64,000 nt of DNA, from contig CAWIBC010000009.1 in assembly GCA_963834255.1 (NCBI GenBank), positions 12,924 to 76,923 of the forward strand. Direction: 5' to 3'. The stretch is from an uncultured Verrucomicrobiae bacterium (lineage in GTDB: Bacteria > Verrucomicrobiota > Verrucomicrobiia > Chthoniobacterales > UBA10450). Positions 1 through 64,000 of this stretch are shown piece after piece (the first letter of the stretch is position 1; each line of letters begins with the position of its first letter). Position numbers and translations under genes: made by a program. The notes under the pieces are model-generated. The model saw nothing but the letters and a program-made list of their open reading frames with translations. It was not told where the DNA came from and made no database searches.

Positions 1-626
1 GAGCGCGCGATATTTTCCTCAAGCAGCCGGGCGCGAAAGAGGAAGACCTTGTCGTCCTGATGGAGATGACGCTGGAAAACCTGCTCGCGGAGGGCCAGCT
101 CAACCACGCCGATTTTCTCGCCCGGGTGGATATCCTCGGGTCGTTAGGCCGGACGGTTTTGATCTCGAAGTTTGGCGAATATTACCGCCTCGCGAGCTAC
201 CTCTCGCGCTACACCAACCGGATGGTCGCGCTCGTCATGGGCGTACCCAGCCTGCACGAGATCTTCGACGAAAAGTATTATCTCAACCTCGAGGGCGGCA
301 TCCTCGAAGCGCTCGGTCGGATGTTCAAAAGCGGGCTCAAGCTTTTCGTCTACCCGATGGAAGATGAAGCAACCGGCGATCTGCTGAGCGCGACCCAGCT
401 CGAGGTCGCCCCCAACCTGCATCATCTCTACCAATACCTGATCGAGAACGGCTTCATCCAGGAGATCACCCAGTTCCATCGCGAGTATTTGCAAATCTTT
501 CCGCCGGAAGTGCTGGCGAAAATTTGCACGGGCGACCCGAGCTGGGAAAGAATGGTGCCGCGGGAAGTCTCGGAGATGATCAAAGCACGCGGCTATTTCG
601 GTTATCGGCCTTCGGTCGCCGCCTAA
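1..626 (+). CDS. conserved hypothetical protein, 5'-partial (frame open to the window edge)
   Basis: ORF 60..626 has no in-frame stop back to nt 3 (ARDIFLKQPGAKEEDLVVLMEM...). Composition is coding-like. No family recognised. Confidence 0.5.
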   Translation, partial: ARDIFLKQPGAKEEDLVVLMEMTLENLLAEGQLNHADFLARVDILGSLGRTVLISKFGEYYRLASYLSRYTNRMVALVMGVPSLHEIFDEKYYLNLEGGILEALGRMFKSGLKLFVYPMEDEATGDLLSATQLEVAPNLHHLYQYLIENGFIQEITQFHREYLQIFPPEVLAKICTGDPSWERMVPREVSEMIKARGYFGYRPSVAA

Positions 627-685
627 AGAGCAGATGGGCGGGAAATTTTCGAGAAGCCCGGCGTCCTCGGCACGGTTTTCGCTTT

Positions 686-1759
686 ATGAAGCGCAAGACC
701 ATGGCCAAGTCCTCCAATTCAGTTGTCGGCATCGACCTCGGCAAGCACGTTTTCAAGAGCGTCCTGCTACAACGCAAAGGCGATGACCGCTATGTCCTGA
801 CAAATTACGCCTCGCATCCTGTCCCGGACACGATCACCACGGCCGACGAACTCGCGCAGCAGGTCAAACTCCTGCTCAAGGAGATGGGAGGCAGCGCCCG
901 GAGTTGTGCCGTCGCGGCCTCCGATTCCAGTGCGCTCCTGCGCATTATCGAACAGCCGAACACGCCGGTGGAATTGCTTCGCAGCGCGCTCCGCCTCAAC
1001 GGCCTCGCCGTCCTCAACCAGGAATGCAAAGATTTTGTCCTCGATTGCGCGCCGGTCTCCGCGGTCGCTCTCGCCGGCGTGGCCCCGAATGGCGCCGCCA
1101 TCGAAGGCTCGTCGGGCAAGACGCGCTATCTCGTGGGCGGGATGTTGCGCCCGGCGGTGAAACAAATCTCCGAGGCGATGAGCAAGACGAAAACGCCGGC
1201 CAACATCCTCCAGCTCGCGCCCATCTGCTCCTTTAACGCTTTCGAATTCGCCTACCCGGAAGTCTTCGCCAACGAAGCCTTTCTTCTTCTCGACATGGGC
1301 CACGAGCAAAGCACCGTCCTGATCGGGAACAAAACCGAGCTCATGCTGGTACGGAGCGTCGAGTACGGGGGCAAACAATTCAGCGAAGCCCTGACCGCCG
1401 ACGGCGCGGTCAATGCCGAATCCGCCCGCCTGCTCATGCAACAGGGCGACGCCGGCATGGCGGACGCCTGCCGCAGCTCACTTCTCACCCTCGCCACGGA
1501 AGTGCGGAACTCGATCGGGTTCTTCGAAGGCCAGTGCGAGGAAAGCATTCACCGCATCTTTGTTTCCGGCGGGATGGCCCGGACGGAAATGATTTTGCAA
1601 ATCCTAAGCGATGAACTGGGCCTGCCCTGCGAGATTTGGGACCCGCTCGAAACCTGCGAAGTGGCCCTGCCCCCGGCCAAGCGCCAGGCCCTCGCGAGCG
1701 AGTTTGTTTCCCTCAATGTCGCGTGCGGCGCAGCCATCTCCTACCTGAAGTCCGCCTAA
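686..1759 (+). CDS. pilM: type IV pilus assembly protein PilM (actin-like ATPase fold)
   Basis: Motifs VGIDLGKH, LLLDMGHEQSTVLI and IFVSGGMARTE. PilN/O-like genes follow directly. ATG 686 chosen inside ORF 524..1759. Confidence 0.8.
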   Translation: MKRKTMAKSSNSVVGIDLGKHVFKSVLLQRKGDDRYVLTNYASHPVPDTITTADELAQQVKLLLKEMGGSARSCAVAASDSSALLRIIEQPNTPVELLRSALRLNGLAVLNQECKDFVLDCAPVSAVALAGVAPNGAAIEGSSGKTRYLVGGMLRPAVKQISEAMSKTKTPANILQLAPICSFNAFEFAYPEVFANEAFLLLDMGHEQSTVLIGNKTELMLVRSVEYGGKQFSEALTADGAVNAESARLLMQQGDAGMADACRSSLLTLATEVRNSIGFFEGQCEESIHRIFVSGGMARTEMILQILSDELGLPCEIWDPLETCEVALPPAKRQALASEFVSLNVACGAAISYLKSA

Positions 1760-1762
1760 AAG

Positions 1763-2985: not shown

Positions 2986-3416
2986 AAAAGCTTTTCCCGG
3001 CCCTTTGCCTAACGAGTCTGCTGTTGCTCAGCGCCGCCCGGGCCGAGAACGCCCCGCCCGTGGCGCCGGCGGCGCCCGCGCTCTCGAAGATCGAGCTCAA
3101 GCACAAATCGACCTTTGATGCCGCCGAGGCGCGCGATCCCTTCTGGCCGATCGGCTGGAAAAAGCCGGGACCGAAAAGCTCCTCGCCGAGCGCCGGTCCC
3201 GACCTCTCGCCCGCCTCCTTTTCCCTGACCTCGGTCACGATGGGCGCCGGCACGCATTTCGCCATCCTCAACGGCAAGATCATGCAGGAAGGCCAGCAGT
3301 TCGGCCTCCAATTCGGCAACCAGATTTACCAGGTCACGCTCCGCGCCATCGAAGACGGCCAGGTCGTCCTCGTCTACCAGGACGGCGAGATCATCGTCCC
3401 GCTGCGCCGGAAGTAA
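2982..3416 (+). CDS. secreted PilP-like protein
   Basis: Signal peptide MKKLFPALCLTSLLLLSAARA. C-terminal beta-rich GKIMQEGQQF...VTLRAIEDGQVVLV resembles PilP. Last gene of the pilMNO cluster. Confidence 0.4.
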   Translation: MKKLFPALCLTSLLLLSAARAENAPPVAPAAPALSKIELKHKSTFDAAEARDPFWPIGWKKPGPKSSSPSAGPDLSPASFSLTSVTMGAGTHFAILNGKIMQEGQQFGLQFGNQIYQVTLRAIEDGQVVLVYQDGEIIVPLRRK

Positions 3417-4391: not shown

Positions 4392-4396
4392 CTTGC

Positions 4397-6436
4397 CTAA
4401 CGATTTCCAACCCGGACCCGGGCCAGGGGAACGAATTCGCTCTCATGCAGCACGACCGGTTTCGTCCCGCGCAGGAGCTTCCACCATTGCCAGGCGCAAC
4501 CGGTCACGATCGCGAGCACGAGGACGAGAAAGGTCAGGGCCACGAGCGCGTCGATCCGCCAGATGAGCGCCTGGCGCGCAAAATCGACGTTGGTGGCCGC
4601 GGCCGCGATCCCCGCTTCCAGCTTGTCCGCCCCGCTCAGGAAGCCGATCCGCGGATCGGGCGAAAAAATCTTCAGCAAACCCGACCAAAACGTTACCACC
4701 ACCATGAAGACGAGCGGAAGCAGCGTCGTCCAGAGGTAGCGCGCCTTGCCCATTTTGATCAGGATCGTGGTGCCGAGACAGAGGGCGATGACGGAGAGCA
4801 GCTGATTCGCCAAACCGAAGAGCGGCCAGAGGCTGTTGATCCCGCCTAACGGATCGAGCACGCCCTGGTAGAGAAACCAGCCCCAGGCGCTGACGAGCAA
4901 CGCGCTCGCGAGAAGATTGGCGCCGACCGACTGGGTATTGCCGAGCGGTCGCCAGACATTGCCCAATAAATCCTGGAGGAGAAACCGCCCGACGCGCGTC
5001 CCGGCATCGAGCGTGGTGAGGATGAAGAGCGCCTCAAACATGATCGCGAAATGGTACCAGAGCGCGAGCGCTGTCGGGCTGGAGGTGACACGGGCAAAGA
5101 TGTGCGCCATCCCGACCGCGAAGGTCGGCGCGCCGCCCGCCCGGCCAAACATCGTGTCCTCGCCCAGGTCGTGCGCGAGTTGCTTCATCTCGCCTTCGGT
5201 CACCGGAAACCCGGCCGCCGAAACCTTGGCCACCACTTCAGAGGGCGTGCCTTTGGCGTTGATCGCGAGGTATTGTCCGGTCGGCAGGGCGCAGGCCGCG
5301 ACCAGCGCCATCAACGCCACCACCATCTCAGTGATCATCGCGCCGTAGCCGATGTCGCGAATTCGCGTTTCGCTTTCCAGCATCTTCGGCGTCGTCCCGG
5401 AAGCGATCAGGGAATGAAATCCGGAGACCGCCCCGCAGGCGATGGTGATGCAGACAAAAGGAAAAACCGGCCCGGCAAAAACCAGCCCGCTCCCGTCGAC
5501 GAAGGGCGTGATCGCCGGCATTTGCAGCGTCGGATGGATCACGATCACCGCGACGGCGAGCGCGGCGACGGTGCCGAGTTTTAGAAATGTGCTCAGGTAA
5601 TCGCGCGGAGTCAGGAGCAGCCAGACCGGCAGGGTCGAGGCGGCGAAGCCGTAAATAATCAGCGCCCAGGCGAGCCATTTCTGGTCGTGCCGGAACCAGC
5701 TTTCGATCGCCGGATAATTCCCCAGAAATTGTCCGCCCCAGACGGAGAGGATGAGGCCGAGAACGCCAAAAGCCGTGACCCAGCCGACGCTGACTCGCCC
5801 GCCGCGCAAGCCGAGTCCCATGATGACGGCGAGCGGGATCGTCATCGCGATGGTGAAAACGCCCCACGGGCTTTTCGCCAGCGCCTGCACCACGACGAGC
5901 GCGAGGACGGCGATCAGCACGATCATGATGGCGAGGACGCTGATGAGCGCGAGCGCGCCGACGACGGGTCCGATTTCCTCTTTCACCATCTGGCCTAACG
6001 TCTTGCCCCGCCGCCGCACGGACGCGAAGAGCACGATCATGTCGTGGACGCCGCCGCCTAACGTGGCCCCGACCAGGATCCAGAGCATGCCCGGGAGATA
6101 ACCGAACTGCGCCGCGAGCACCGGCCCGACCAGCGGCCCGGGCCCGGCGATGGCGGCGAAATGATGGCCGAACGCCATCCAACGACTGGTCGGGACGAAG
6201 TCCTTGCCGTCGTTGACGACGAGCGCGGGCGTGGCGCGTTCGTCGTTCAGGACGAGCACTTTTGCGGCGAGCCACTTGCTGTAAAAGCGATAACTGATCG
6301 CGGCCGTACACAAGCCCGCGGTCACGATCCAGAGGGCGTTGATCGGTTCGCCGCGGGCGAATGCCGCCACCCCCACCGCCGTCGCCCCGAGGAGGGCGAT
6401 GCCAAGCCAAAAAAGGATTTTAAGGACCCGGATCAT
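4397..6436 (-). CDS. cstA: carbon starvation protein A (peptide/pyruvate transporter)
   Basis: 679 aa, many TM helices. CstA N-terminus ...ISYRFYSKWLAAKVL...FGHHFAAIAGPGPLVGPVLAAQFGYLPG. Confidence 0.9.
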   Translation of the reverse strand: MIRVLKILFWLGIALLGATAVGVAAFARGEPINALWIVTAGLCTAAISYRFYSKWLAAKVLVLNDERATPALVVNDGKDFVPTSRWMAFGHHFAAIAGPGPLVGPVLAAQFGYLPGMLWILVGATLGGGVHDMIVLFASVRRRGKTLGQMVKEEIGPVVGALALISVLAIMIVLIAVLALVVVQALAKSPWGVFTIAMTIPLAVIMGLGLRGGRVSVGWVTAFGVLGLILSVWGGQFLGNYPAIESWFRHDQKWLAWALIIYGFAASTLPVWLLLTPRDYLSTFLKLGTVAALAVAVIVIHPTLQMPAITPFVDGSGLVFAGPVFPFVCITIACGAVSGFHSLIASGTTPKMLESETRIRDIGYGAMITEMVVALMALVAACALPTGQYLAINAKGTPSEVVAKVSAAGFPVTEGEMKQLAHDLGEDTMFGRAGGAPTFAVGMAHIFARVTSSPTALALWYHFAIMFEALFILTTLDAGTRVGRFLLQDLLGNVWRPLGNTQSVGANLLASALLVSAWGWFLYQGVLDPLGGINSLWPLFGLANQLLSVIALCLGTTILIKMGKARYLWTTLLPLVFMVVVTFWSGLLKIFSPDPRIGFLSGADKLEAGIAAAATNVDFARQALIWRIDALVALTFLVLVLAIVTGCAWQWWKLLRGTKPVVLHESEFVPLARVRVGNR

Positions 6437-6488
6437 TTGCAGGCGAGCGACTATAGCGCGGGCTGCAATCCATCGGCAAACCGCGCCC

Positions 6489-9148
6489 TCAGCCTAACGA
6501 CTCCACCATCCGCTGGAGCTGTTCCAGCTGCTCCGCGAAATCCTTTTCCCGTTGCCGGTGCTCGGCCACGACCGCGGCCGGGGCGTTCGCGACGAAATTT
6601 TCGTTCGCCAGTTTCTTCCGCACCGTGACCAGCTCGGCCTCGGTTTTCGCGATCTCTTTCCCGATCCGCAGCCGTTCCGCCTCGAGATCGATCAAGCCCT
6701 CGAGCGGGAGGTAAAGTTCGCCCAGCGGCGTGAGCGCGGTCGGCGTTCCCTTGGGCGGAGCGTAACTCTGCGGCAGATCGAGCCGATCCGCGTTGAGCAG
6801 GATGCGCAGGACGGCCGCTTCTTCCTCCGGCAACGGACTCGACGGCCGGAGGACAAAAGCGACGCGCTTGTTCGAGGCGATGTTGAAATCGCGCCGCAAA
6901 CGACGGCCGGCGATGACGGTCTCGTATTTCGCGTTCGCGATCTGCTCGTCGTTAGGCGTGAGCCCGTAGTGTTTCCTGAATTCCTCGTCCAGCGGCTGCG
7001 GCCAGTGCGCGAACTGGATCGTCTTCGCGCCCTGCTCTGCGGGCAGATCGACGTTGAATCCCAGCCCATGCCAGAGCTCCTCCGTGATGAAGGGCATGAA
7101 CGGATGAAAGAGGCGCAGGGTGTGGCCGAGGATGAAATCGATCACCGCGAGCGTGTTTGCCTTGCGCGGGCTGGGCGGTTCCGCGTCGGCAAACCCAAGC
7201 GCGGCCTTGCTCGCTTCCAGATACCAGTCGCAGAATTCGCTCCAGAAAAAGCGGTAAAGCGCCTGCGCCGCTTCGCTGAAATTGTATTCCTCGAGCGCCT
7301 GCGTGACCGCGCGGATGGCGTGGTCGAGCCGGAGCAGGATCCATTTGTCATCGCTCGTGAGGAGCGCGGGATTGATTTCGCCCTCGGTCTCGCCGCCGTG
7401 CATTTGGCGAAAGCGGGTCGCGTTCCAAAGCTTGTTCGCGAAGTTGCGCCCTTCCTCGATTTGCTTCTCGTCGTAGCGAATATCCTGCCCGCTCGGCGCG
7501 ATCCGCATCAGGCCGAAGCGCACGCCGTCGGCGCCATATTTCCCGATCAGGTCGAGCGGATCGGGCGAATTGCCTAACGACTTGCTCATCTTTCGCCCCT
7601 GTCCGTCGCGGATCAGGCCGGTGAAGAAGACGTTGCTGAACGGCAGCCTGCCCGGTGTACTCGAGCCCGGCCATGATCATGCGCGCGACCCAGAAAAAGA
7701 TGATGTCGGGCGCGGTCACGAGATCGGTCGTCGGATAAAATTTCGCGCGGGTGGCGTCGTCCATCGTCTCGAAAGGCCAGAGCCAGCTCGAGAACCAGGT
7801 GTCGAGCACATCGGGGTCCTGCGTCCAATTCTCCGGATCCGCCGGCGGCTCGACGTCGACATGCAGCTTCGCCGGGTCGTCGTTGGCATACCAAACCGGG
7901 ATGCGATGGCCCCACCAAAGCTGGCGGCTGATGCACCAGTCCTGGATGTTCTCGAGCCAGTGCTGGTAGACGTTTTCCCAGCGCTCCGGCCGGAAATGAA
8001 TCGCCGCCTGCGGACCGACCGCGGCCCGCGACTCCTCGACCCGCGGATATTTCAAAAACCATTGCTCGCTCAGGCGCGGCTCGATTGGAACGCCCGCGCG
8101 CTCGCTGAAACCGACCGTGCTCTCGTGCGGCTCTTCCTTTGCCAGCAATCCGCTTTCGGCCAGCATCTCCGCCGCCTTTTTGCGCGCGACGAAGCGATCG
8201 AGTCCGTCGAGCTCGGGAACGTTAGGGCAATTGATCGTGCCATTCGGATGCAAAACATCGATCACTGGCAGGCCGTGGCGCTGCCCGATCTCGAAATCCA
8301 CCTTGTCGTGCGCCGGGGTCACTTTCAGGACGCCGGTGCCGAACGCCGGATCGATCCCCTCGTCGCCGACCACCGGCAATTCCGCGCGATCGAGCGGGCG
8401 CCAGACCTTTTTGCCTAACGACGCCCGATAGCGCTCGTCCTGCGGATGCACCGCGAGCGCGACGTCGGCCATGATCGTTTCCGGCCGGGTGGTCGCGACC
8501 TCGATGAATTTCCCCGGCTCCTCCACCAGCTCGTAGCGGACGTAAAAGAGAGAAGATTTCTGCGGGGTCGGGATCACTTCCTCGTCTGAGAGCGCGGTGA
8601 GCGCGACCGGGTCCCAGTTCACCATCCGTCTTCCCGCGGTAGATCAGGCCCTTCTGGTGCAGATCGACGAAGGTGCGCTGCACGGCGCGGGAATAATCGT
8701 CGTCCATGGTGAAGCGTTCGCGCGACCAGTCGCAGGAACAGCCGAGGCGCTTCAGTTGCTCGATGATGATGCCGCCGTGCTTTTCCTTCCATTGCCAGAT
8801 GCGCCTAACGAATTCCTCGCGCCCGAGATCGTGCCGGGTTTTCTTTTCCTCCTTGCGCAACTGGCGTTCCACCACCGTCTGGGTCGCGATCCCGGCGTGA
8901 TCCGTGCCCGGCAGCCAGAGCACTTCCCGGCCGAGCATGCGGGCGCGCCGGGCGAGGATGTCCTGGATGGTGTTGTTCAGGACGTGGCCGAGGGTGAGGA
9001 CGCCGGTCACATTCGGCGGCGGGATGACGATGGAGTAGGCCGGCTTGGGCGAAGCCGGATCGGCCGCAAAACAGCCGTCCGCCAGCCAGCGGGCGTACCA
9101 TTTCGCCTCCACCGCCTGCGGTTCGTATGCTTTGGACAGTTCCGTCAT
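6489..9148 (-). pseudogene. valS: valine--tRNA ligase, reading frame broken twice in this sequence
   Basis: N-terminal frame (from ATG 9148) carries PPPNVTGVLTLGHVLN (HIGH region) and ends sensibly at ...LIYRGK. The middle frame resumes at RMVNWDPVALTALSDEEV through ...FFWVARMIMAGLEYTGQ. The third frame carries LPFSNVFFTGLIRDGQGRKMSKSLGN plus the coiled-coil C-terminus. Junctions are near 8629 and 7645-7651. Confidence 0.85.
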
Positions 9149-9640: not shown

Positions 9641-10754
9641 GTGAATTTATTGAAAGTCATCCTGGCTCTTTTGCTCGCGGGTGTCGTGACACCGCCGGCG
9701 CTGGCTCAGGACTGGGAAGTGATCGAGGCCGAAGGGCGCGATTACGTGAGCTTTGCGAATGTCGCGCAGTTCTATCGCTTCCCGCAATTCTCGCAGGTCA
9801 GCCGAACCGTTTCGCTGCGGGACGAGCGGCGCGGCATTCGCGCGCAGGGCGGGACGAGCGAATTTTTCATCAACGGCGTGCGCTTTTTCAGCAATTTCCC
9901 GCTCCTCGCGCGGGAGAACGCGAATCTCATCTCGGTGATCGACGTTGCCAAGATCGTCGAGCCCGTCCTGCGACCGAACAAAATCCGGGGCGCGAAGGAG
10001 ATCGACACCGTGGTGCTCGATCCCGGCCATGGCGGCGAGGATAGCGGAACTTCCGGCCCGTGGGGAAACGAGAAGACCTTCGCGCTCGATGTCGCGCTGA
10101 CTGCGCGTGAACAATTGCTCCGCGCCGGGTTCAAGGTGGAAATGACGCGCTCGACGGACAAGACGGTCGCGCTCGAGGAGCGGGTCGCGTTTGCCAATCA
10201 ATTTCCCACCGCGGTTTTCATCAGCATTCACTTCAACTCCGCCCGCGGCGGTTCGGGAGTGGAAAGCTATGTCCTCGCCCCGGCCGGGGTGCCCTCGAAT
10301 GCCTCGACCGAAGAATCATCCGAGTTCGACCGAGACGGAATTTTTGCAGGGCAATGCGCAGGATGCGGCCAACATCGCGCTGACCGCGGCGGTGCATGCC
10401 TCGATTTTATCGAAGGTCTCGGTCTTCGATCGCGGAGTGCGGCACGCGCGCTTTCACGTCCTGCGCGACATCACCATCCCGGCGGTGCTGGTGGAGGCCG
10501 GTTTCCTGAACGACCGGGTGGAGGGCGCGCAGATCGCGACCGCGGCCTACCGGCAAAAGCTCGGTCAGGCGATGGCGGCCGCGGTCAGCAATTATAATCG
10601 CGCGGTGCATTTCCAGACCTCGGGGCCCACCTTGGTCGCGGCCGCGAGCAATCTTCCGCCGCACTCGCGTGCCATCACCGATTCGTTAGGCCGGCCGCCT
10701 CCTGCCAGTCCGATGCCTTCGCCGCCCTCGGCCGCGATCCAGAATTCCAATTAA
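9641..10754 (+). pseudogene. N-acetylmuramoyl-L-alanine amidase (AmiC-like), one apparent frameshift
   Basis: GTG 9641 and signal peptide LLKVILALLLAGVVTPPALA. Amidase_3 motifs VVLDPGHGGEDSG and FISIHFNS lie in frame 1. The C-terminal half (FLQGNAQDAANIALT...IPAVLVEAGFLN...) lies in frame 2. The junction is at the T5 run 10341-10345. Confidence 0.75.
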
Positions 10755-10755: not shown

Positions 10756-11592
10756 ATGACCGTACCAGCGAGCGCGAGCAGGCGGGAAAAACCGATCGGC
10801 GTCTTCGATTCCGGGATCGGCGGGCTGACCGTGGTCCGCGCCCTGCGCGGGCTGTTGCCTAACGAGGGGATTTTTTACCTGGGCGACACGGCTCGCGTCC
10901 CCTACGGCGGCAAAAGCGCGGCCACGGTCGAGCGCTACAGCCTCGAGATCACCGAGATGTTGCTGGCGGAAAACTGCAAGACCGTCGTCGTCGCCTGCAA
11001 CACCGCTTCTGCCCTCGCCCTGCCGCGGCTCGAATCGACCACGCCGATCCCGATCACCGGGGTGATCCAGCCGGGCGCGCAGGCGGCAGTGGCTGCGACC
11101 CGCAACGGCCACATCGGGGTCATCGGTACCCGGGCGACGATCAAGAGCGGCGCCTACGAGCGCGCGCTCCTCGCCCTCGACCCGGCGGTGCGCGTCTCGG
11201 CCCGGCCCTGCCCGCTTTTCGTCCCCCTGATCGAGGAAGGCTGGCTCGAAAGCGAGATCACTGACGGAGTCGTTAGGCAATATCTCACCCCGCTGGTCGA
11301 CGACGGCATCGATACTCTTGTTCTCGGCTGCACCCATTACCCGCTTCTGCGCGAGGCGATCGGACGTTTCCTCGGCGAATCGGTGCAGCTGGTCGATTCG
11401 GCGCAGAATTGCGCGACCGCGGTGGCGCAGATGCTGGAGGAGGAAGGCCTGCGCGCCGAGCCCGACGCGGAAGGGCGATTGGCGGTCGCCCTAACCGATC
11501 CGCCCGATGCCTTTCTCGATGTCGCCTTAAAGGCGCTGCAACTCGACATCGGCACGGTGCAGCTGCGCCAGGTCATCCACCCCGCTCGTTAG
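10756..11592 (+). CDS. murI: glutamate racemase
   Basis: IGVFDSGIGGLTV, VVACNTAS and LVLGCTHYPLL motifs. Confidence 0.9.
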   Translation: MTVPASASRREKPIGVFDSGIGGLTVVRALRGLLPNEGIFYLGDTARVPYGGKSAATVERYSLEITEMLLAENCKTVVVACNTASALALPRLESTTPIPITGVIQPGAQAAVAATRNGHIGVIGTRATIKSGAYERALLALDPAVRVSARPCPLFVPLIEEGWLESEITDGVVRQYLTPLVDDGIDTLVLGCTHYPLLREAIGRFLGESVQLVDSAQNCATAVAQMLEEEGLRAEPDAEGRLAVALTDPPDAFLDVALKALQLDIGTVQLRQVIHPAR

Positions 11593-11933
11593 GATCGGGT
11601 TTTCCCTTTTTTCGGCCGGGGCGCGACCAGGTCGTAGGAGTGATCGATCATGGCGCGCAGTTCAGCGTCCGGGATTCGGCCGGCGAGCGCGACCGTGTTC
11701 CAGTGCTTCTTGTTCATGTGATAACCGGGCTGCACTTCCTCGTAGCGATCGCGCAAATCGAGCGCACGGTCCGGGTCGCACTTCAGATTGGCGCGCGGCG
11801 GCACTTCGTCGAGCGAAGCGAGGGCGAAAATCTTTCCGGCGACCTTGAAGACGATCGTGTCCTCGCCAAAAGGCGTGCCCTCGGTCGCGCCCGCTTTCGT
11901 TAGGCAATAATCGCGGAAATCTTCCAGGTTCAC
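11589..11933 (-). CDS. MmcQ/YjbR-family DNA-binding protein
   Basis: 114 aa: ...DYCLTKAGATEGTPFGEDTIVFKVAGKIFA...KCDPDRALDLRDRY..VQPGYHMNKKHWNTV. GTG start overlaps the glyQS stop by 1 nt. Confidence 0.7.
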   Translation of the reverse strand: MNLEDFRDYCLTKAGATEGTPFGEDTIVFKVAGKIFALASLDEVPPRANLKCDPDRALDLRDRYEEVQPGYHMNKKHWNTVALAGRIPDAELRAMIDHSYDLVAPRPKKGKTRS

Positions 11934-17504: not shown

Positions 17505-17587
17505 CGAATGGAGCGGGAGCGTCGGGGACGATCAAACCAGTTGCCCGGCGCCCGGAGCGGGCTAAATCTACGGTCGCCCGTTTTTCC

Positions 17588-18267: not shown

Positions 18268-18297
18268 ACGACTCTCGCCTAACGACGAAGGCGCTCG

Positions 18298-27790: not shown

Positions 27791-27867
27791 ATCGACTTGC
27801 GACCGAGCGTTAGTTTTATCCGACAATCGCTCATCGGCAAGATCGTTAGGCGAAAGAGAGGTCGTTC

Positions 27868-30432: not shown

Positions 30433-30644
30433 ACGTTAGGCGGCGGAAAGAATGAGGGAGCGAGCCCTTTCTGCCCAGCGGAAAAAATTTGTCCGGCAAC
30501 AGCGGCTGTAACCGAAGATGGCGGGACGCTGTCTTGAAATGAATGTGGGAAGGAGGGCAACCGGACCGGGGCCTCGATTCGTAATATGTGTGAGGCGCTC
30601 CAAGGGAACTCCGGCGCCGCAATCTTAACCAAAGGAGAAATGGA

Positions 30645-49859: not shown

Positions 49860-50444
49860 GGGAGTAAGCGGGGGGTTCCTGCCTAACGAATAAAAATTAC
49901 AGACCACTTTGGAAAGGTCAATCTGCAATGCGTCGCCAAAAGCTCACCGTAAAAAAGCTGTCAACCCGAGCCCGGTCTTCGAAATGGTAACTCCGGCCGC
50001 GCGGCCAGAGTCCCGTCATCGATAACCGCGTTCACTCGCGAGAAGTATCCCGGCTAAAGCCAACGTGGAGGGAAGCAACATCCGCAGCCCGGACTGAACT
50101 GAGGCCCGACAGGACAGTAGCTTTCGTTAGGCTAGCAATCTCAAGATACCGGGAAAAGAGACGAAGAGAAATTCCAGCCTTGCCAGAAGAACCCGGTCTG
50201 GGTCAAGCGAAGGTTTGTATGTTCCTCGGCGATGACAGCGGACAGGCCAATTGACCGTTCAGCCGTCAGCGGCGGCCTCGATTTTCCCAAGGTCCCCGCA
50301 ATCCGTCACTGCGCGGACTGATCGCCGCGTTTCCTGTGCATCCGAAAGACCTCGGTTGTCGGATATCGTCACAGCTTGGGGGTTAATTCCGTCCAAAATC
50401 GGAGCCACCAGGCCAAACCCGTAAAATTAGAAAGAAAATAAGTT

Positions 50445-51374: not shown

Positions 51375-53114
51375 CTACTCCGCGCCGGCCGGCTCGGCGA
51401 AGCCAGTCGTCTCCGCCATCACTTCGTCGGTCTGCGTCACCCGCACGACTTCTTCGATCGTCGTTTTGCCTTCCATCACGCGCCGCCAGCCGTCCTGGCG
51501 CAGGGTCAGCATCCCCTGGGCGATGGCGGTTTGCTTGAGCTCGCCACCGTCGCGCTTTTGCATGATGAGACGCTTCAGCGGCTCGGTCACGACACAGATT
51601 TCGTAGATCGCGAGGCGGCCCTGGTAGCCGGTCTGGCGACAATTTTCGCAGCCCGCGCCGCGCCGGAAAGTGAGTCCGTGGTCGAGCGGAAAGTTTATTT
51701 CTTCGAGATACTCTTTCGGATATTCGACCTTCTCCGCGCAATCGGGGCAGACCGTGCGGACGAGTCGTTGGGCCAGGAATGCTTTCACGACCGAGGCGAG
51801 GAGGAAGGGCTCGACGTCCATGTCGAGCAAACGGGTGATGCCGCCGACCGCGTCGTTCGTATGCAGGGTGCTGAAGACGAGGTGACCCGTCATGGCCGCG
51901 CGAATCGAGATGTCGGCCGTCTCGACGTCGCGGATTTCTCCGACCATCACGACGTTCGGGTCCTGCCGCAGAATGTGGCGCAGGCCCTTGGCAAAGGTGA
52001 GGTCGATCTCCGGTTTCACGTCGATCTGCGAGACGCCGGGCAGGCGATATTCGACCGGTTCCTCGATCGTGATGATGCGGCGCTGGACGGAGTTGATGCT
52101 GCTGAGGAAACAATAAAGCGAAGTCGATTTGCCCGAGCCGGTCGGGCCGGTGACGAGAACGATTCCGTTAGGCTGGGCAAGCAGCGCCTTCATGATCCGC
52201 GTCTGCTCCGGGCTCAGGTCGAGGCGTTCGAAACCGAACGCTTTTTGCTGGTCGCGCGCGAGCAGACGCAGGCTGATCGATTCACCGTTGACGGTTGGGA
52301 TGGTGGAAACGCGCACGTCGATGGTTTGCTCGGCCGATTGCAGGTTGATGCGGCCGTCCTGCGGCAAACGGCGCTCGGCGATGTCCATGTGCGCCATCAC
52401 TTTCAGGCGCGAGATGATGGCCGATTGCAGGAGGCGCAATTGCGGCGGAACCGCGACTTCGTGCAGGATGCCGTCGATGCGATAACGAATGCGCAGATCG
52501 TTCTCGAGCGGTTCGACGTGGATGTCGGTCGCGCGTTCGTGGATCGCTTCGCGGATGATCTGGTTGACGAACTTCACCACCGACGCTTCCGGGTCGTCGG
52601 CGTTCAGGTCGGTGCTCGTCTCGATGTCCTGGAGCGCTTCAAAGGAGCGATTCGTCTTGAGGATTTCGTCAAACGTTTCCGCCCCGACGCCGTAAAGCGT
52701 TTTCATCGCGCGCAGGATTTGCGCGCGCGGGACGAGGACCCACTCCGCCGGTTTATCCAGCAGCTGCGAGGCGAGCTGGCGCCCGGTCGAGTTAAACAAA
52801 TCGTAGGTCGCGAGGACGACGGCGTTGTCCTTGATCTCGATCGGCAGGATGTGGTGCTGGAAAACAAAACGGCTCGGCAGCACCAGCAAGGTCGCGCGCT
52901 CGATGCTCTTGGCGTCGATCGAGATGACCGGGACGCTGAAAAAATCGCCGATCGCTTTCAGGAAAAGCTGTTCGTCGACTTTGCCGGAATTGAGGACGTC
53001 GGCCGTCCAGGAGTTGCCGTTGAGATTGGCCGCGAGCGCGGTCGCTTCGTCCCGCGATGGGACGCCGCTGGCGAGAAGGATGTCGACGAGTGATTTACTC
53101 AGTGCCGGACTCAT
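51375..53114 (-). CDS. pilB: type IV pilus assembly (extension) ATPase PilB / GspE family
   Basis: N-terminal GSPII-type domain, Walker A GPTGSGKST, GEIRD, GHLVFSTLHTNDA, and the tetracysteine CPDC...CENC. Confidence 0.9.
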   Translation of the reverse strand: MSPALSKSLVDILLASGVPSRDEATALAANLNGNSWTADVLNSGKVDEQLFLKAIGDFFSVPVISIDAKSIERATLLVLPSRFVFQHHILPIEIKDNAVVLATYDLFNSTGRQLASQLLDKPAEWVLVPRAQILRAMKTLYGVGAETFDEILKTNRSFEALQDIETSTDLNADDPEASVVKFVNQIIREAIHERATDIHVEPLENDLRIRYRIDGILHEVAVPPQLRLLQSAIISRLKVMAHMDIAERRLPQDGRINLQSAEQTIDVRVSTIPTVNGESISLRLLARDQQKAFGFERLDLSPEQTRIMKALLAQPNGIVLVTGPTGSGKSTSLYCFLSSINSVQRRIITIEEPVEYRLPGVSQIDVKPEIDLTFAKGLRHILRQDPNVVMVGEIRDVETADISIRAAMTGHLVFSTLHTNDAVGGITRLLDMDVEPFLLASVVKAFLAQRLVRTVCPDCAEKVEYPKEYLEEINFPLDHGLTFRRGAGCENCRQTGYQGRLAIYEICVVTEPLKRLIMQKRDGGELKQTAIAQGMLTLRQDGWRRVMEGKTTIEEVVRVTQTDEVMAETTGFAEPAGAE

Positions 53115-55902: not shown

Positions 55903-56340
55903 ATGCGGCCGTTTCGCTTTCTCCTTCTCGTCGTTTCGTTAGGCATCTCCCTCCCCGCTTCCGCGCCCGCCGCCGCCGATCCGTCGGTGGCGATCCGCGA
56001 CCTGCTCGCGCAACAGGCGGCGGCCTGGAACCGGGGCGAGATCGACGCCTTCATGGCCGGCTACGCCCGTTCGCCCGAGACCACGTTTGTTTCCGGCAAC
56101 GAGGTGACCCACGGCTGGCAGACGGTGCGCGATCGTTATGCCAAAAAATACGACAGCCGGGAAAAAATGGGCCGGCTGACTTTCTCCCGCCTAACGATCA
56201 CGCCGCTCTGCGACGATTCCGCGATGGTCCTGGGCAGTTGGCGGCTGGAACGCAAAGAAGATCAGCCGCAGGGGAAGTTTACCCTCCTCCTGCGCAAGCT
56301 GCCGGAAGGTTGGCGCATTGTGATGGATCACACCTCATGA
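55903..56340 (+). CDS. SnoaL-like/DUF4440 (NTF2-fold) protein with signal peptide
   Basis: ATG 55903 within the long antisense ORF frame. ...IRDLLAQQAAAWNRGEIDAFMAGYA......GW..VRDRY......L.F......L.D..A...G.W.L....P.G.FTLL.RK...GWRIV.DH. Confidence 0.65.
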   Translation: MRPFRFLLLVVSLGISLPASAPAAADPSVAIRDLLAQQAAAWNRGEIDAFMAGYARSPETTFVSGNEVTHGWQTVRDRYAKKYDSREKMGRLTFSRLTITPLCDDSAMVLGSWRLERKEDQPQGKFTLLLRKLPEGWRIVMDHTS

Positions 56341-56352: not shown

Positions 56353-57753
56353 TCACCGCTGGTAATTCCGCAAACGCCCGAGCAGCTTCTCGTGGATCCC
56401 GTCAAAGCCGCCATTGCTGAAGATGGCGACGACGTCGTTAGGCTGGAGCAGCGGCACGAGCCGGTCGAGAATCGCCTCCGCGTCGCGCTCGTAGAACGCC
56501 AGCCGGCCCGCCTCGGCGATGGCCGCGACGACCGCTTCGGGATTCAGCCGTTCGCCTTCCGGGATCTGCTCCAAGCCCGCGATCTGGGCGATGAAAACGC
56601 CGTCGGCCAACTGCAGCGCCTCCGGCAATTGCTGCTGGAAAACCGCCCGTCGGGTCGTGTTGGAGCGCGGCTCGAAAATGGCCCAGAGCCGGTGCCCCGG
56701 ATAACGATGGCGCAACGCGCCTAACGTTTCCCGGATCGCCGTCGGGTGATGTCCGAAATCGTCGATCACGGTCACCCCGCCCACACTTCCCCGCACCTCC
56801 TGGCGGCGCGCGATCCCTTCGAAGCTGGTCAGGGCGGTCTGGATGACCTCGGGCGTGAGGCCATAGAAACGGGCCGCGACCGCCGCCATGGCGGCATTGC
56901 GGACGTTAAACTCGCCGATGAGCGGAGACTCGAAGGTCGCCTCCCCTAACGAAAAGCGAGAACCGCCCGCGGAGTAGCTGACCTCGCGGATTCGCTCCGC
57001 GCAATTCTCGGAAAAGCCCACCCCCACGAGTGGCGCGAGGCAGTCGCGGGTGACTTCGAGGCAGTTCGCGTCGTCGCCGTTGAGCAGGATCATTCCGTTT
57101 TGCGGCACGATGTTGACCAGCCGGCGGAAACTCAGTTTCACCGCGTCGAGATCGTCAAAAATATCGGCGTGATCGAACTCGATATTGTTGAGGATGAGCA
57201 GCTCCGGCAGGTAGTGGATGAACTTGGAACGCTTGTCGAAAAAGGCGCTGTCGTACTCGTCGCCCTCGATCACGAAATGTTTCGAGTCATTGAAGAGCGC
57301 GCCCTGCCCAAGGTTGCGCGGCAACCCGCCGACGACATAGCCCGGCTCCAGTTCCCCGACGGTCAGCATCCAGGCGAGGAGCGCGCTCGTGGTCGTTTTC
57401 CCGTGCGTGCCGGTGACGACGAGGTTGTGTTTTCCGCGCAAAAAAAACTCCTTCAGCACTTCCGGCAGCGAGAGGTAATAAAGCTTGCGGTTGAGGACCG
57501 CCTCCACTTCCGGGTTGCCGCGCTTGATCGCGTTCCCGATCACGACCACCTCGGCGTCGTCAGGTAAATTTTCCGCGCGATACGGCTCGCTCAGCGCGAT
57601 TCCCCGGGCGCGCAGGAAATCGGACATCGGCGGGTAAACCTTTTCATCCGAGCCGGTCACGATGCAGCCGCGCTCGCGCAGAGCCGCCGCCACCCCGCCC
57701 ATGGCGGTGCCGCAAATTCCAAGGAAATGGAAATGCTGCGGCGTTTTTTTCAC
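56353..57753 (-). CDS. mpl: UDP-N-acetylmuramate:L-alanyl-gamma-D-glutamyl-meso-diaminopimelate ligase (murein peptide ligase)
   Basis: HFLGICGTAMGGVA...TGSDEKVYPPMS...VIGNAIKRGNPEVEAVL...VTGTHGKTTT closely follows the Mpl N-terminal pattern. GTG 57753 chosen. Confidence 0.85.
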   Translation of the reverse strand: MKKTPQHFHFLGICGTAMGGVAAALRERGCIVTGSDEKVYPPMSDFLRARGIALSEPYRAENLPDDAEVVVIGNAIKRGNPEVEAVLNRKLYYLSLPEVLKEFFLRGKHNLVVTGTHGKTTTSALLAWMLTVGELEPGYVVGGLPRNLGQGALFNDSKHFVIEGDEYDSAFFDKRSKFIHYLPELLILNNIEFDHADIFDDLDAVKLSFRRLVNIVPQNGMILLNGDDANCLEVTRDCLAPLVGVGFSENCAERIREVSYSAGGSRFSLGEATFESPLIGEFNVRNAAMAAVAARFYGLTPEVIQTALTSFEGIARRQEVRGSVGGVTVIDDFGHHPTAIRETLGALRHRYPGHRLWAIFEPRSNTTRRAVFQQQLPEALQLADGVFIAQIAGLEQIPEGERLNPEAVVAAIAEAGRLAFYERDAEAILDRLVPLLQPNDVVAIFSNGGFDGIHEKLLGRLRNYQR

Positions 57754-59744: not shown

Positions 59745-60614
59745 ATGAGACAATATCTTCGTTTGTTCTCCCTGTTCTTGGCGGTCGCCGTGACCGCTGC
59801 CAACGCGGCCGCACAGGCCAAACCAAGACCGACTCCCCCGCCGACCGAAGTGTATGCCATCGCGAGCGATAATACGCAGCTGACATGGACGGTGTACACG
59901 CCCGCGGGGCGAGGCCCCTGGCCGGCCGTGCTCGTCATTCACGGGGGCCGGTTCGTCGGCGGCGACGCCAGTGAAGCGGGTGTCGTGACCGCCGCGCAGG
60001 ATTTGGCCGCGGCCGGTTACGTGGCTTACGCGATCAATTATCGCCTTGCCCCGCCCGGCAAGATTCCCGGCCAGCGTTCGTTAGGCAGATTTCCCGATCA
60101 ATACAACGATGTCCACCTCGCGGTGCAGGCAGCGCGCGATGACAGCCGCTCCAATGGCAAGGTCGGGGCCGTCGGCGGATCGGCGGGGGCGACGCACGCC
60201 GTCTGGGTCGCCGCCACCGGCATGGCTGGCCAGGATCGGCTTGATGCCGCCGTCGGTATCTCGGGCGCGTATGATTTCTCCGATTTCAGCGCCGATCCCA
60301 ACCTCGCCTTGTTTATCGACACGGTGACAAATTACGTCGGCGTCCCGACGAGCGACACCGTCTCTCTGCGCGCGGCTTCGCCGGCCTGGATCGTGACTAA
60401 GACCGTGGCTCCACTGTATCTGGTCGATTCCGCGGGCGACGTGATGCCGGCCGCGCAACTCGATGACATGGTGGCGCATCTCATTTCGAACGGGGTACGC
60501 GACTACACGGCGATAACGACCTCGGGCAAGCTCCACTCCTTCGCCAACTGGCCACAGGTCAAGAGCGGCGCCCTCGCTTTTCTCGCCTCCGAGCTGGGCA
60601 CGGGAGGTCGTTAG
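59745..60614 (+). CDS. secreted alpha/beta-hydrolase, paralog of the upstream gene without the linker/C-terminal modules
   Basis: ATG 59745 and signal peptide MRQYLRLFSLFLAVAVTAANAAAQA. WPAVLVIHGGRFVGG, GGSAGATH. Colinear with aa 30-285 of 57871..59631. Confidence 0.7.
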   Translation: MRQYLRLFSLFLAVAVTAANAAAQAKPRPTPPPTEVYAIASDNTQLTWTVYTPAGRGPWPAVLVIHGGRFVGGDASEAGVVTAAQDLAAAGYVAYAINYRLAPPGKIPGQRSLGRFPDQYNDVHLAVQAARDDSRSNGKVGAVGGSAGATHAVWVAATGMAGQDRLDAAVGISGAYDFSDFSADPNLALFIDTVTNYVGVPTSDTVSLRAASPAWIVTKTVAPLYLVDSAGDVMPAAQLDDMVAHLISNGVRDYTAITTSGKLHSFANWPQVKSGALAFLASELGTGGR

Positions 60615-60629
60615 GCAAGCCGGAGTCGT

Positions 60630-62088: not shown

Positions 62089-63117
62089 AACCTGGAGGGC
62101 GGCGCGCACGCGCGAGTTTTCCTTTAACTCCGCAAAGATGAGCCGGCCCCCGCCGGTTTGCAGTGCGCTCGAGACCACCACCGTCGCCACCCGCCCGATG
62201 TGCGGGCGGCCCTGGTTGACCACGATCATCGTCCCATCGGGCAAATAACCGACCGCCTGATGATGGTCGCGGCCTTCCTTGACCAGATTCAACTCCAGTT
62301 CGTCGCCCGCCACCACCACCGGTCGCAAGGCATGAGCGAGGTCGGTCAGGTTCAACACCGGCACCTGCTGTAAACGCGCAACTTTCCCGAGCGCCTGGTC
62401 GTTGGTCAAAAGCCGCGCCTGGAGCACCTGCGCGACCCGGACGAGCCGGGTGTCGACCGGGAGTTCGCTGTCGTCGAGCCCGCTGTCGTGGATGGTGAGA
62501 TCGATTTCGCGCGATTGCTGAAGCTGATTCAAAATGTCGAGGCCACGCCGGCCGCGCTCGCGCTTGATCGAATCGTGTGCATCGGCCAGGAGCTGCAACT
62601 CGCCGAGGACGAAGCGCGGCACGATGAGCGCCCGGCTCAGGAAACCAGTCGCGCAAAGATCGGCGATGCGGCCGTCGATGATGATGTTGGTGTCGATCAC
62701 GAGCGGCTCGTGCTGAGTCGTCTCCCGCGCAAAACGGACGTAGGGGATGATGAGGGAAAATTCGTCACGGCTGCTGCGCATCGCGAGCATGGTGCCGAGG
62801 TAGCCAAAGGTGCAATAGACGACCAGGCGGGCGATCCATTGCGTTTCTTCCGACTGGTAACGGAGGACTTGCGAGGCGATGAGCAGGTTGGCCAAAAAAA
62901 GACCCAGCAGCAGTCCCAGCGTGGCCGAGGAAAAAGCGCGCAGGGAGAGCCCCTTGAGGAGCCGATCGGCCAGGACAAGGATGAGCCCGAAGAGGGCGCC
63001 GAGGAGCAGCCCGGGTATGGCGTTCTCCTGGACCTCGACCGAAACGAGCGCGCCGACCACCCCGGCAAAGGTGACGAAAAGAATCCGCAAAAGATTGATG
63101 GTGAGGAGCGGAGTCAT
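62083..63117 (-). CDS. membrane-anchored PIN + TRAM domain protein (YacL-like)
   Basis: 4 N-terminal TM helices. PIN domain LVIDTNIIIDGRI. C-terminal TRAM-like GTMIVVNQGRPHIGRVATVVVSSALQTGGGRLIFAEL. Confidence 0.75.
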   Translation of the reverse strand: MTPLLTINLLRILFVTFAGVVGALVSVEVQENAIPGLLLGALFGLILVLADRLLKGLSLRAFSSATLGLLLGLFLANLLIASQVLRYQSEETQWIARLVVYCTFGYLGTMLAMRSSRDEFSLIIPYVRFARETTQHEPLVIDTNIIIDGRIADLCATGFLSRALIVPRFVLGELQLLADAHDSIKRERGRRGLDILNQLQQSREIDLTIHDSGLDDSELPVDTRLVRVAQVLQARLLTNDQALGKVARLQQVPVLNLTDLAHALRPVVVAGDELELNLVKEGRDHHQAVGYLPDGTMIVVNQGRPHIGRVATVVVSSALQTGGGRLIFAELKENSRVRAALQVL

Positions 63118-63123
63118 GCCAGC

Positions 63124-64000
63124 CTAACGATTTGATCTGCGCCGCGGCGCGGGCGTGTTTTCGGGCGGCGGCGCGACCCTGGCGGCGCTGTCCCGGTAAA
63201 AGAGGACGCCGTGACGCCGCAGGTTACTAATGAGAGCGCGCAGGTCGTTCGCCACGGCTTCATTCGTAAGCAACAATGGGACCAACCCGTCCCCTTTCGT
63301 GGCCTCGTTCAGGAGCCGGCTGGCCGCCTGCACGGTCTTCTGGGCATCGGCGGCGGCCGCCTCGATTTTGTCCGCCGCCTCCTTCGCCGAGCCCATCGTG
63401 CCGTCCGCTTTTTCGAGGACGCCATCGATCTTTTTCGACGACTCAGAAAGGGCCGCGGTTGTCTTACTTAGGTTGTCGAAGGTCTCTTTCAGGTGCTCCA
63501 TGTTGGCCTGGGAAAGTGCGTCTCCATTCAGCTTGCTCACCGCGATGTCGATCTTCGCGATCGTCCCGCGCAGGTCCTTGATCAAGGCGCCGCCCTCTTT
63601 CGTGATGTCGTCGAGGCCTTTCTCGCGCGCGCCTTCGACCCGCGCGCCCTTGGCGATGTAAGCCGTCGGTTTGTCGGTCGGGGGAAAGATCGCGACGAAG
63701 CGATCGCCTAACAATCCCGAGCTCCCGACCGTGATCGAGCTGCCGACCGGGATTTTGACGAAATCGAAAATCTTCAGCGGGACCTCGACCCCGCGCCCGA
63801 CCGTGACCAGGCGCGGGGCGCCCGCCACCTGCCCGACCTTGGCCCCGCCCATCAGGACATCCGAATTCTTCAGCAAGCCGCTCGCATCGGAAAAGTGGAC
63901 GGTGAGATTGTCGTACTTCTTGAAGCCTTCGCCGAGCCGGCCGAACTGCACCACGAGCGCGGCCAGGACGGCCAGCCCGACGGCGACAAAAATTCCCACC
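63124..64000 (-). CDS. MlaD/MCE-domain protein, 5'-partial (continues beyond the window end)
   Basis: GIFVAVGLAVLAALVV TM helix. MCE core ...VHFSDASGLLKNSDVLMGGAKVGQV.... C-terminal coiled coil. The frame is still open at nt 64000. Confidence 0.7.
   Translation of the reverse strand, partial: VGIFVAVGLAVLAALVVQFGRLGEGFKKYDNLTVHFSDASGLLKNSDVLMGGAKVGQVAGAPRLVTVGRGVEVPLKIFDFVKIPVGSSITVGSSGLLGDRFVAIFPPTDKPTAYIAKGARVEGAREKGLDDITKEGGALIKDLRGTIAKIDIAVSKLNGDALSQANMEHLKETFDNLSKTTAALSESSKKIDGVLEKADGTMGSAKEAADKIEAAAADAQKTVQAASRLLNEATKGDGLVPLLLTNEAVANDLRALISNLRRHGVLFYRDSAARVAPPPENTPAPRRRSNR

Follow-up and report, generated by a model that had tools for sequence, protein, structure and literature searches.

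Why should a short word recur about once per kb in bacterial DNA, within genes and between them and in both orientations? The question is raised by a 64-kb stretch of contig CAWIBC010000009.1, from an uncultured member of the Chthoniobacterales (Verrucomicrobiota), which is referred to here as the window. The 9-mer TCGTTAGGC, read as GCCTAACGA on the other strand, ranks first among all 9-mers by frequency in this window, and it is asymmetric, differing from its own reverse complement. By analogy with known systems, it may serve a soil clade of Chthoniobacterales as a lineage-specific word for self-recognition of the uptake type, a reading that we regard as evenly poised between right and wrong.

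Enrichment, coding and shape of the word

Exact copies of the 9-mer number 38 (17 on the + strand and 21 on the - strand) against 0.35 expected, and its core CGTTAGG/CCTAACG occurs 56 times (24 + and 32 -) against 3.16 expected; dinucleotide-preserving shuffles gave at most 3 and 8 copies, respectively. The core extends to CGTTAGGC in 46 cases. These totals, the strand and position of every core and the four copies of a one-mismatch variant, TCGTTAGTC, had all been given correctly in a preliminary description of the window, which put the G+C content at about 65%, where the measured value is 62.4%. The exact word is enriched ~100-fold relative both to dinucleotide shuffles and to synonymous-codon shuffles, compared with 2.7-fold (36 against 13 expected) for 9-mers one mismatch away, among them TCGTTAGTC and TTGTTAGGC with four copies each. 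The commonest of these neighbors, in every relative as in the window, are TCGTTAGGG and TTGTTAGGC. Once the motif is masked, no comparably over-represented word is left in the window. The DNA available for counting consisted of the 64-kb window and related loci of 20 kb.

That constraint acts on the DNA and not on the protein, as the preliminary description had proposed, is strongly supported by codon spelling, by synonymous shuffling and by the identity of orthologous sites. Of the 21 exact copies and 35 cores observed in 40 confident open reading frames (ORFs), shuffling of synonymous codons, with each protein sequence and the overall codon usage kept, left 0.21 (maximum 3) and 1.5, respectively, which rules out an artefact of protein sequence or codon usage. 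Ten of the 13 Ser-Leu-Gly tripeptides in these ORFs are written TCG-TTA-GGC, which is TCGTTAGGC, where codon usage predicts 0.4%; Pro-Asn-Asp/Glu is written CCTAACGA in six of seven cases, where 4.5% is predicted. The motif thereby uses rare codons, TTA in the former and CCT in the latter. TTA makes up 2.6% of leucine codons, a rarity already remarked upon, and 10 of the 46 TTA codons lie inside TCG-TTA-GGC. The example singled out at the outset, the KMSKSLGN motif of valS, does carry a copy (7572-7580).

Assignment of frames likewise bears out the use of several frames. All four frames that remain open are used, and copies also lie in intergenic DNA; the word is read as Ser-Leu-Gly in ~23 copies, Pro-Asn-Asp/Glu in ~10, Leu-Thr in ~10 and Val-Arg in ~7, the frame calls having been partly corrected manually. 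The remaining two frames contain a stop codon and are used at gene ends, where six copies, called by scoring upstream-only windows, provide the stop codons of seven genes, including cstA, the membrane-protein gene 15852-17504 and the gene 59700-60614. One copy (11587-11593) is shared by the ends of two convergent genes, supplying the TAG of a racemase gene (+) and the TAA of a YjbR-like ORF (-), so that the two genes overlap by 4 nt.

The word has sharp boundaries. Aligned window copies show no conservation in their flanks, and in a logo of 287 distinct GTTAGG contexts from the window and 16 related loci the information, about 16 bits, is confined to T-C-GTTAGG-C, no flanking position exceeding 0.14 bit. 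With uninformative flanks and a logo of exactly 9 bp, the element is a bare 9-mer and not the core of a mobile repeat; the extended conserved flanks that would have indicated one were looked for and not seen. Neither does the word have a polarity. The + and - orientations are intermixed along the 64 kb, and none of 13 loci, the window and 12 more, departs from equal strand counts (pooled chi-square 8.4, df 13, p = 0.82), as the initial report of no strong strand bias had implied. The strong co-orientation expected of a Chi- or KOPS-type (FtsK-orienting polar sequence) signal is absent from all 13, which argues against such a role.

Distribution in relatives and phages

Homologues of its glycyl-tRNA synthetase (GlyRS) assign the window to soil Verrucomicrobiota, order Chthoniobacterales. 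The word is shared by relatives, which the preliminary description had named as a check. It is found in 16 related Chthoniobacterales loci from two further genomic regions (L081-L090, L137-L139, L001, L004 and L002). L081-L090 come from ten assemblies that encode an identical MreB and are 77-91% identical to the window at the nucleotide level; they hold 0.7-1.4 cores per kb, and TCGTTAGGC is the top 9-mer in eight of the ten and top or near-top overall. Three loci around glyS (L137-L139) also carry it. Density drops with distance from the window organism: L001 and L004, whose GlyRS proteins are 89% and 84% identical, contain 0.33-0.36 cores per kb, and L002 (GlyRS 80% identical) contains 0.25. 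The word is nearly absent from L003, L005 and L006 (GlyRS 75-80%), from the other Verrucomicrobia sampled and from all loci from other phyla.

Comparison of orthologous sites suggests how copies arise. L002 carries a synonymous variant, TCGCTCGGC, in the KMSKSLG motif of valS; non-motif states in cstA are the near-matches CCGCTCGGC, ACGCTTGGC and ACCCTGGGC, and at the stop-codon copy 17499-17507 the alternative state is TCGTCAGGC. Such near-matches indicate an origin by point substitution, and orthologous sites differ by substitutions without insertions or deletions. Gain of the motif sometimes alters the protein, for example at 8413-8421, where L002 and L004 have TTAATCGGC and TTGATCGGG and read Leu-Ile-Gly where the window reads Ser-Leu-Gly. 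Each genome also has private copies, which implies that sites turn over.

Existing copies are retained more often than other DNA. In L081-L090 and L001, 50-100% of motif sites are kept against 15-59% of all 9-mers there, and relatives at 78% overall identity hold 50-75% of the exact copies of the window intact against 15-17% of all 9-mers. Where the amino acids are unchanged, 54 of 58 motif sites are identical in DNA, compared with 39% of 117,325 control 9-mers.

The word also reaches phages. IMG/VR was scanned four times for two copies of the word lying close together. Most matches were due to chance (in the first scan, chance pairs only), and the later three scans yielded three contigs of host-like G+C and host density. 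IMGVR_UViG_3300037261_000237 (L142/L168) has 17 exact copies in 18 kb and encodes a Mu-type transposase, a MuB-like transposition protein, a repressor-like regulator, a holin, a large terminase and a portal protein. IMGVR_UViG_3300036819_000104 (L164), a phage head-gene fragment with terminase, portal, head protease and major head protein, has nine copies in 12 kb, and IMGVR_UViG_3300044812_000039 (L161), which encodes a ParB-like protein, has six in 8.3 kb. In the annotated genes of L168 and L164, six of seven Pro-Asn-Asp/Glu tripeptides are spelled with the word. A motif density at or above that of the host makes a host in this Chthoniobacterales clade assignable for all three contigs. A distant terminase relative (L169) has no copies, and searches with single terminase proteins retrieved almost no relatives. 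All known phages that lysogenise Pasteurellaceae accumulate the uptake signal sequence (USS) of their hosts, up to host-like saturation and in proportion to the length of co-evolution (PMC6776037), and the accumulation seen here parallels this.

The phage loci have an orientation of their own. L168 (7411-14268), L164 and L161 lean to GCCTAACGA on the coding strand, and the structural module of L168 contains ten consecutive copies in one orientation; host genes lean the opposite way (about 35:21). The lean of the phage loci may stem from amino-acid composition or from a polarity peculiar to phages.

Other dispersed words occur in more distant loci. In a Spartobacteria metagenome-assembled genome (MAG; L019, JAYVOE010000128.1, 3061-9669), (G)ATGTTAGGAG appears eight times in 12.5 kb, on both strands, against 0.36 expected. 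It shares the GTTAGG core with TCGTTAGGC, a hint of a dialect, and a metagenome scan found it absent from 26 relatives of the L019 locus, which leaves the dialect relationship unproven. Two near-identical contigs related to L019 (L098/L099; Ga0105046_10024082 and Ga0209181_10008226) have dispersed, over-represented words of their own on both strands, with GAGACGCTG as a candidate lineage-specific word; their 13.6 kb hold 12 copies of GAGACGC, most of them with TG next, and eight of GAGTTCC(T). Their significance is uncertain because they are built from common codons. TGACTGG, enriched in L096 and L097, was rejected as a dialect word, being a local tandem repeat. Palindromic octamers are over-represented in Persicirhabdus sediminis (L023) and a Planctomycetota MAG (L024), where the two-strand count of CCAGCTGG is 42 in 21.6 kb against 8.9 expected (about 21 sites) and that of CCTCGAGG is 22 against 6.5; this excess may be a phenomenon like the cyanobacterial highly iterated palindrome (HIP) elsewhere in the superphylum.

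DNA uptake and its alternatives

How could such a word build up? By analogy with USS and with the DNA uptake sequence (DUS) of Neisseriaceae, from which uptake, receptor and drive are all borrowed, a DNA receptor at the cell surface, part of the competence machinery and probably pilus-associated, would bind double-stranded DNA containing the asymmetric 9-mer in either orientation. Fragments bearing the word would then be taken up and recombined more often, so that point mutations creating it would spread in the population and those destroying it would be replaced. This would amount to a molecular drive, possibly with selection on top. The word would build up wherever coding constraints permit, to about one copy per kb, and likewise in temperate phages that stay integrated in these chromosomes for long periods.

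The properties open to testing, namely a 9-bp asymmetric word that is present about once per kb, unpolarised, mostly intragenic, born by substitution, retained beyond protein constraint, clade-specific and shared with phages, are those of USS and DUS, and an uptake-type word is for this reason rated the likeliest explanation. The USS (core AAGTGCGGT) of Pasteurellaceae is likewise built on an asymmetric core of 9 bp that recurs about every kb in both orientations, lies mostly within genes in several frames, originates by point mutation, is common to related species and accumulates in temperate phages up to host-like density (PMC6776037). It differs in its unrelated sequence, its phylum, its AT-rich flanking segments (the flanks of TCGTTAGGC carry almost no information) and its association with terminators, and for TCGTTAGGC an uptake bias and a receptor are putative. 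DUS (GCCGTCTGAA and dialects), which is read by the minor pilin ComP, is also a short, asymmetric, clade-specific word, in hundreds to thousands of copies. Its dialects have their counterpart here only in the hint from L019, which was not reproduced in relatives of that locus, and no ComP-like pilin was identified in the available DNA of the window and related loci. HIP1 (GCGATCGC) of cyanobacteria resembles TCGTTAGGC in its frequency of about one per kb in coding and non-coding DNA, its spread by substitution and its conservation beyond codon expectation; its role, for long a puzzle, has now been linked to transformation (bioRxiv 10.64898/2026.06.24.733823). HIP1 is palindromic, with methyltransferase sites and quasi-periodic spacing, whereas TCGTTAGGC is an asymmetric word of 9 bp with Poisson-like spacing. 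USS, DUS and, of late, HIP1, the short hyper-abundant words without polarity that are known, are linked to transformation (bioRxiv 10.1101/2025.10.24.684340; bioRxiv 10.64898/2026.06.24.733823).

The preliminary description, which had compared the word with DUS and USS, had also pointed to type IV pilus machinery encoded in the window. What stands of the latter is a PilT/PilU-family ATPase (13943-15181, +), the sole pilus-type protein of the window above the curated cut-off. A PilM-like protein (region 524-3416, +) falls below the cut-off and is similar to the Akkermansia Amuc_1101 family; the ORFs after it gave no family matches. The secretin and its neighboring ATPase (51375-55848, -) score as GspD/GspE of type II secretion at least as well as PilQ/PilB. 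The pilus argument for uptake is weak.

Several further observations weigh against uptake. The secretin and second ATPase may, from their scores, belong to type II secretion, and prepilin-type N-termini were found neither in the window nor in 15 related loci. To our knowledge, natural competence has not been described in this group. Even spacing of copies was looked for in the window and not found; spacing is indistinguishable from random placement (coefficient of variation 0.95, Poisson-like), with a largest gap of 4.9 kb between cores. Density is 0.63 per kb in segments present in at least five relatives and 0.81 in those present in at most one, a comparison of low power (p = 0.62). The comparison with USS and DUS holds for length, density, asymmetry, point-mutation origin, conservation and phage accumulation, and fails for pairing in inverted-repeat terminators. 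About half of DUS and USS lie in terminators, DUS being concentrated in intergenic ones (bioRxiv 10.1101/2025.10.24.684340), whereas in the window ~6 of 56 copies are intergenic and ~90% are intragenic or at stop codons. The nearest oppositely oriented copies are 174 bp apart, so no hairpin pairs are formed. Such a location is a common rather than a strictly defining feature of the USS/DUS family. The positive evidence, moreover, is also compatible with another orientation-independent function in DNA binding.

The foremost function of this kind would be that of a binding site for an abundant, sequence-specific chromosomal protein unrelated to uptake, such as a nucleoid-structuring factor or the reader of a 'self' mark in a nuclease or defence system, with the site kept by selection on every replicon in the host, phages included. 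We consider this unlikely, while taking it more seriously than the other alternatives. Strong conservation at synonymous positions, host-level density in the phage-derived and ParB-encoding contigs, the lack of a density difference between core and variable segments in the low-power comparison and the lack of connection with terminators speak for it, and the sharp limits of the word, with ~16 bits, suggest that a single specific reader exists. We know of no precedent, however, for an unpolarised, exact, asymmetric 9-mer at ~1 per kb in such a role, and the sites of nucleoid proteins are usually degenerate. Random spacing also speaks against it, and gain and loss between genera fit a requirement for density better than a site-specific function.

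A repair ratchet, neutral or selfish, of the type suggested for HIP1 and summarised in bioRxiv 10.64898/2026.06.24.733823, would leave the word without function, near-matches in whatever DNA replicates in the host being converted to it by sequence-directed mismatch correction or in connection with methylation. The creation of copies by point substitution at near-matches, the modest enrichment of one-mismatch neighbors beside that of the exact word and the presence of copies in phage-derived contigs fit this proposal, which we nevertheless hold to be improbable. A contiguous, asymmetric specificity of 9 bp is longer than usual methyltransferase sites. A Vsr-type process corrects one position only, and its expected substrate, TTGTTAGGC, is enriched (4 against 0.21) and not depleted. 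HIP1 itself, in addition, is now tied to transformation (bioRxiv 10.64898/2026.06.24.733823).

Polar chromosome signals of the Chi (RecBCD/AddAB) or KOPS (FtsK) type are strongly disfavoured. Chi and KOPS, with the related architecture imparting sequences (AIMS), are over-represented 8-mers in core chromosomal DNA and thus similar in length (8-9 bp) and in core-gene abundance, and the run of ten same-orientation copies in the Mu-like phage recalls them, but they are strongly co-oriented with replication, and the intermixed, unbiased orientations of TCGTTAGGC in the window and 12 further loci are not. Practically refuted is an origin as a long-read base-calling error or as the remnant of a mobile repeat: single-base frameshifts in valS are typical of error-prone assemblies, yet the word occurs in assemblies that, judging from contig names (the SPAdes-style L002, then L001, and L087/L088), differ in assembler and platform, and changes to and from it can be synonymous and in frame, which together exclude a base-calling artefact, while the unconserved flanks, the 9-bp logo and the substitutions without indels at orthologous sites rule out a remnant of a miniature inverted-repeat transposable element (MITE) or repetitive extragenic palindromic (REP) element. 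REP/MITE elements and NTS/SRM hairpin repeats are also dispersed and high-copy, but they are 20-150 bp long, intergenic, structured and conserved in their flanks, where TCGTTAGGC is a flankless 9-mer, mostly in coding DNA; Ssn/NTS-type repeats, which are 30-bp intergenic hairpins, were set aside as not comparable.

Sequence-specific uptake of self DNA has been described in only two proteobacterial families according to a 2025 survey (bioRxiv 10.1101/2025.10.24.684340), and HIP1 was recently proposed as a further case (bioRxiv 10.64898/2026.06.24.733823). It is conceivable, though we would place this slightly below an even balance, that the word belongs to a third uptake-sequence system, independent of those of Neisseriaceae and Pasteurellaceae, in uncultured and globally abundant soil Verrucomicrobia and with a receptor unrelated to ComP. 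A full-text literature search found TCGTTAGGC in oligonucleotide sequences and other unrelated contexts only, and nothing that links the word to a genome feature, or the word or any uptake sequence to Verrucomicrobia. Within the literature searched, the feature is undescribed.

Positions of the copies, neighboring genes and implications

The copies are distributed over the window as follows.

Table 1. Copies of the core in the window. "Exact" denotes the full 9-mer; for other copies the form of the 9-mer is given.
Position	Strand	Form	Reading or location	Kept in relatives
141..149	+	exact TCGTTAGGC	Ser-Leu-Gly in ORF 3-626 (+)	
3007..3015	-	exact	Cys-Leu-Thr near N-terminus of + ORF 2979-3416 (manual frame check)	
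4395..4403	-	exact	TAG, stop of cstA (4397-6436, -)	
4844..4852	-	core CCGTTAGGC	Pro-Leu-Gly in cstA	
5993..6001	-	core ACGTTAGGC	Thr-Leu-Gly in cstA	
6056..6064	-	core ACGTTAGGC	Thr-Leu-Gly in cstA	
6492..6500	-	exact	Ser-Leu-Gly directly before valS stop	
6949..6957	+	exact	Pro-Asn-Asp in valS (gene on -)	
7572..7580	-	exact	SLG of KMSKSLGN motif, valS	
8219..8227	+	core ACGTTAGGG	Pro-Asn-Val in valS	
8413..8421	-	exact	Ser-Leu-Gly in valS	
8803..8811	-	exact	Phe-Val-Arg in valS	
10683..10691	+	exact	between amidase and racemase genes, frame uncertain	
10857..10865	-	exact	Pro-Asn-Glu in racemase gene (+)	L001, L002, L004
11270..11278	+	exact	Val-Val-Arg in racemase gene	L001
11586..11594	+	core TCGTTAGGA	TAG stop of racemase (+), TAA stop of convergent ORF 11589-12056 (-)	
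11897..11905	+	exact	Leu-Thr near start of YjbR-like gene (-)	L001
14282..14290	+	exact	Ser-Leu-Gly in PilT/PilU-family ATPase gene	
16522..16530	-	core TCGTTAGGG	Leu-Thr in membrane-protein gene 15852-17504 (+)	
17499..17507	-	exact	TAA, stop of gene 15852-17504 (+)	
18277..18285	-	exact	intergenic, just downstream of ABC-2 permease gene	
23162..23170	-	exact	Pro-Asn-Glu in PLP-enzyme (pyridoxal phosphate) gene (+)	
23617..23625	-	core GCGTTAGGG	TAG stop of - ORF 23619-24857	
23651..23659	-	exact	frame ambiguous, convergent ORFs overlap	
24203..24211	+	exact	Leu-Thr in a - ORF	
25069..25077	-	core TCGTTAGGG	Phe-Val-Arg in PMT_2 glycosyltransferase gene (-)	
25136..25144	-	core CCGTTAGGC	Pro-Leu-Gly in PMT_2 gene	
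26024..26032	-	exact	Leu-Thr in a + ORF	
27843..27851	+	exact	intergenic, adjoins tRNA-Ser	
28797..28805	+	exact	Val-Val-Arg in radical-SAM ORF (+)	
29050..29058	-	core TCGTTAGGG	Pro-Asn-Asp in the same radical-SAM ORF as 28797	
30433..30441	+	core ACGTTAGGC	1 nt upstream of MFS (major facilitator superfamily) gene ATG (-)	
31620..31628	+	exact	Pro-Asn-Glu in nitroreductase gene (-)	5/6
32739..32747	+	exact	Ser-Leu-Gly in radical-SAM/BATS gene	6/6
32853..32861	+	exact	Ser-Leu-Gly in radical-SAM/BATS gene	6/6
33946..33954	-	exact	Ser-Leu-Gly in a - ORF	4/5
35597..35605	-	core TCGTTAGGG	Val-Val-Arg in a - ORF	
36736..36744	+	core TCGTTAGGT	Leu-Thr in PEP-CTERM ORF (-)	
38883..38891	-	exact	Ser-Leu-Gly in RNase E/G gene	9/9
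41083..41091	+	core TCGTTAGGG	Pro-Asn-Glu in PBP2 gene (-)	
44723..44731	-	core CCGTTAGGC	Ala-Val-Arg in mreB	
45310..45318	-	exact	Leu-Thr in rpe (+)	8/10
45639..45647	+	exact	Ser-Leu-Gly in rpe	8/10
47858..47866	-	exact	Leu-Thr in cupin gene (+)	4/10
49881..49889	-	exact	intergenic, upstream of TIR-domain gene	
50124..50132	+	exact	intergenic	
50593..50601	-	exact	Leu-Thr in DUF4394 gene (+)	
52165..52173	+	core CCGTTAGGC	Pro-Asn-Gly in GspE/PilB-like ATPase gene (-)	
55936..55944	+	exact	Ser-Leu-Gly in small + gene between secretin and Mur-ligase genes	
56189..56197	-	exact	Leu-Thr in small gene between secretin and Mur-ligase genes	
56435..56443	+	exact	Pro-Asn-Asp in Mur-ligase gene (-)	4/4
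56719..56727	-	core ACGTTAGGC	Thr-Leu-Gly in Mur-ligase gene	
56944..56952	-	core TCGTTAGGG	Ser-Leu-Gly in Mur-ligase gene	
60078..60086	+	exact	Ser-Leu-Gly in gene 59700-60614 (+)	
60608..60616	+	exact	TAG, stop of gene 59700-60614	
63122..63130	-	exact	TAG, stop of gene 63124-63999 (-)	

The frameshifts in valS (6489-9265, -) split the gene over three frames through two single-base indels, near 8630-8634 and 7645-7670. An intact valS of 878 aa is present in the close relative L137, fragmented genes also occur in the long-read relatives L085, L086, L089, L090 and L138, and the breaks most probably stem from indel errors in the assembly and do not mark a pseudogene. Other genes of the window may be similarly hit, for example 23619-24857 and 24230-25738. 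In L081, part of the mreB-rpe-cupin-MMPL region is duplicated in inverted orientation, with truncated mreB and rpe fragments (15611-21041 versus 3749-11041), which is probably a long-read assembly artefact.

A gene for a protein of 562-592 aa with an N-terminal TIR domain (48072-49850, -) lies in a segment common to few relatives, with an intergenic copy of the motif on either side; its third-position G+C, 0.68, is below that of its neighbors. PADLOC gave no match for this protein or for the other unannotated proteins tested.

Whatever its function, the word shows with unusual clarity how selection on DNA overrides codon usage. As a practical marker, it has led to three IMG/VR contigs, one of them from a Mu-like phage, that can be assigned to this host clade, and it could help in designing DNA with which to manipulate these organisms genetically or to enrich them. 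As an uptake sequence, it would bring a new phylum to the two families with described motifs, and the phenomenon could no longer be seen as peculiar to host-associated Proteobacteria; otherwise, it would represent a new kind of unpolarised genome-wide signal. Were uptake to prove true, sequence-selective natural transformation would shape genomes in soil communities, and a 9-mer barcode would mark the DNA of this clade and its phages in metagenomes. The word gives a direct handle on whether transformation is active in soil Verrucomicrobia.

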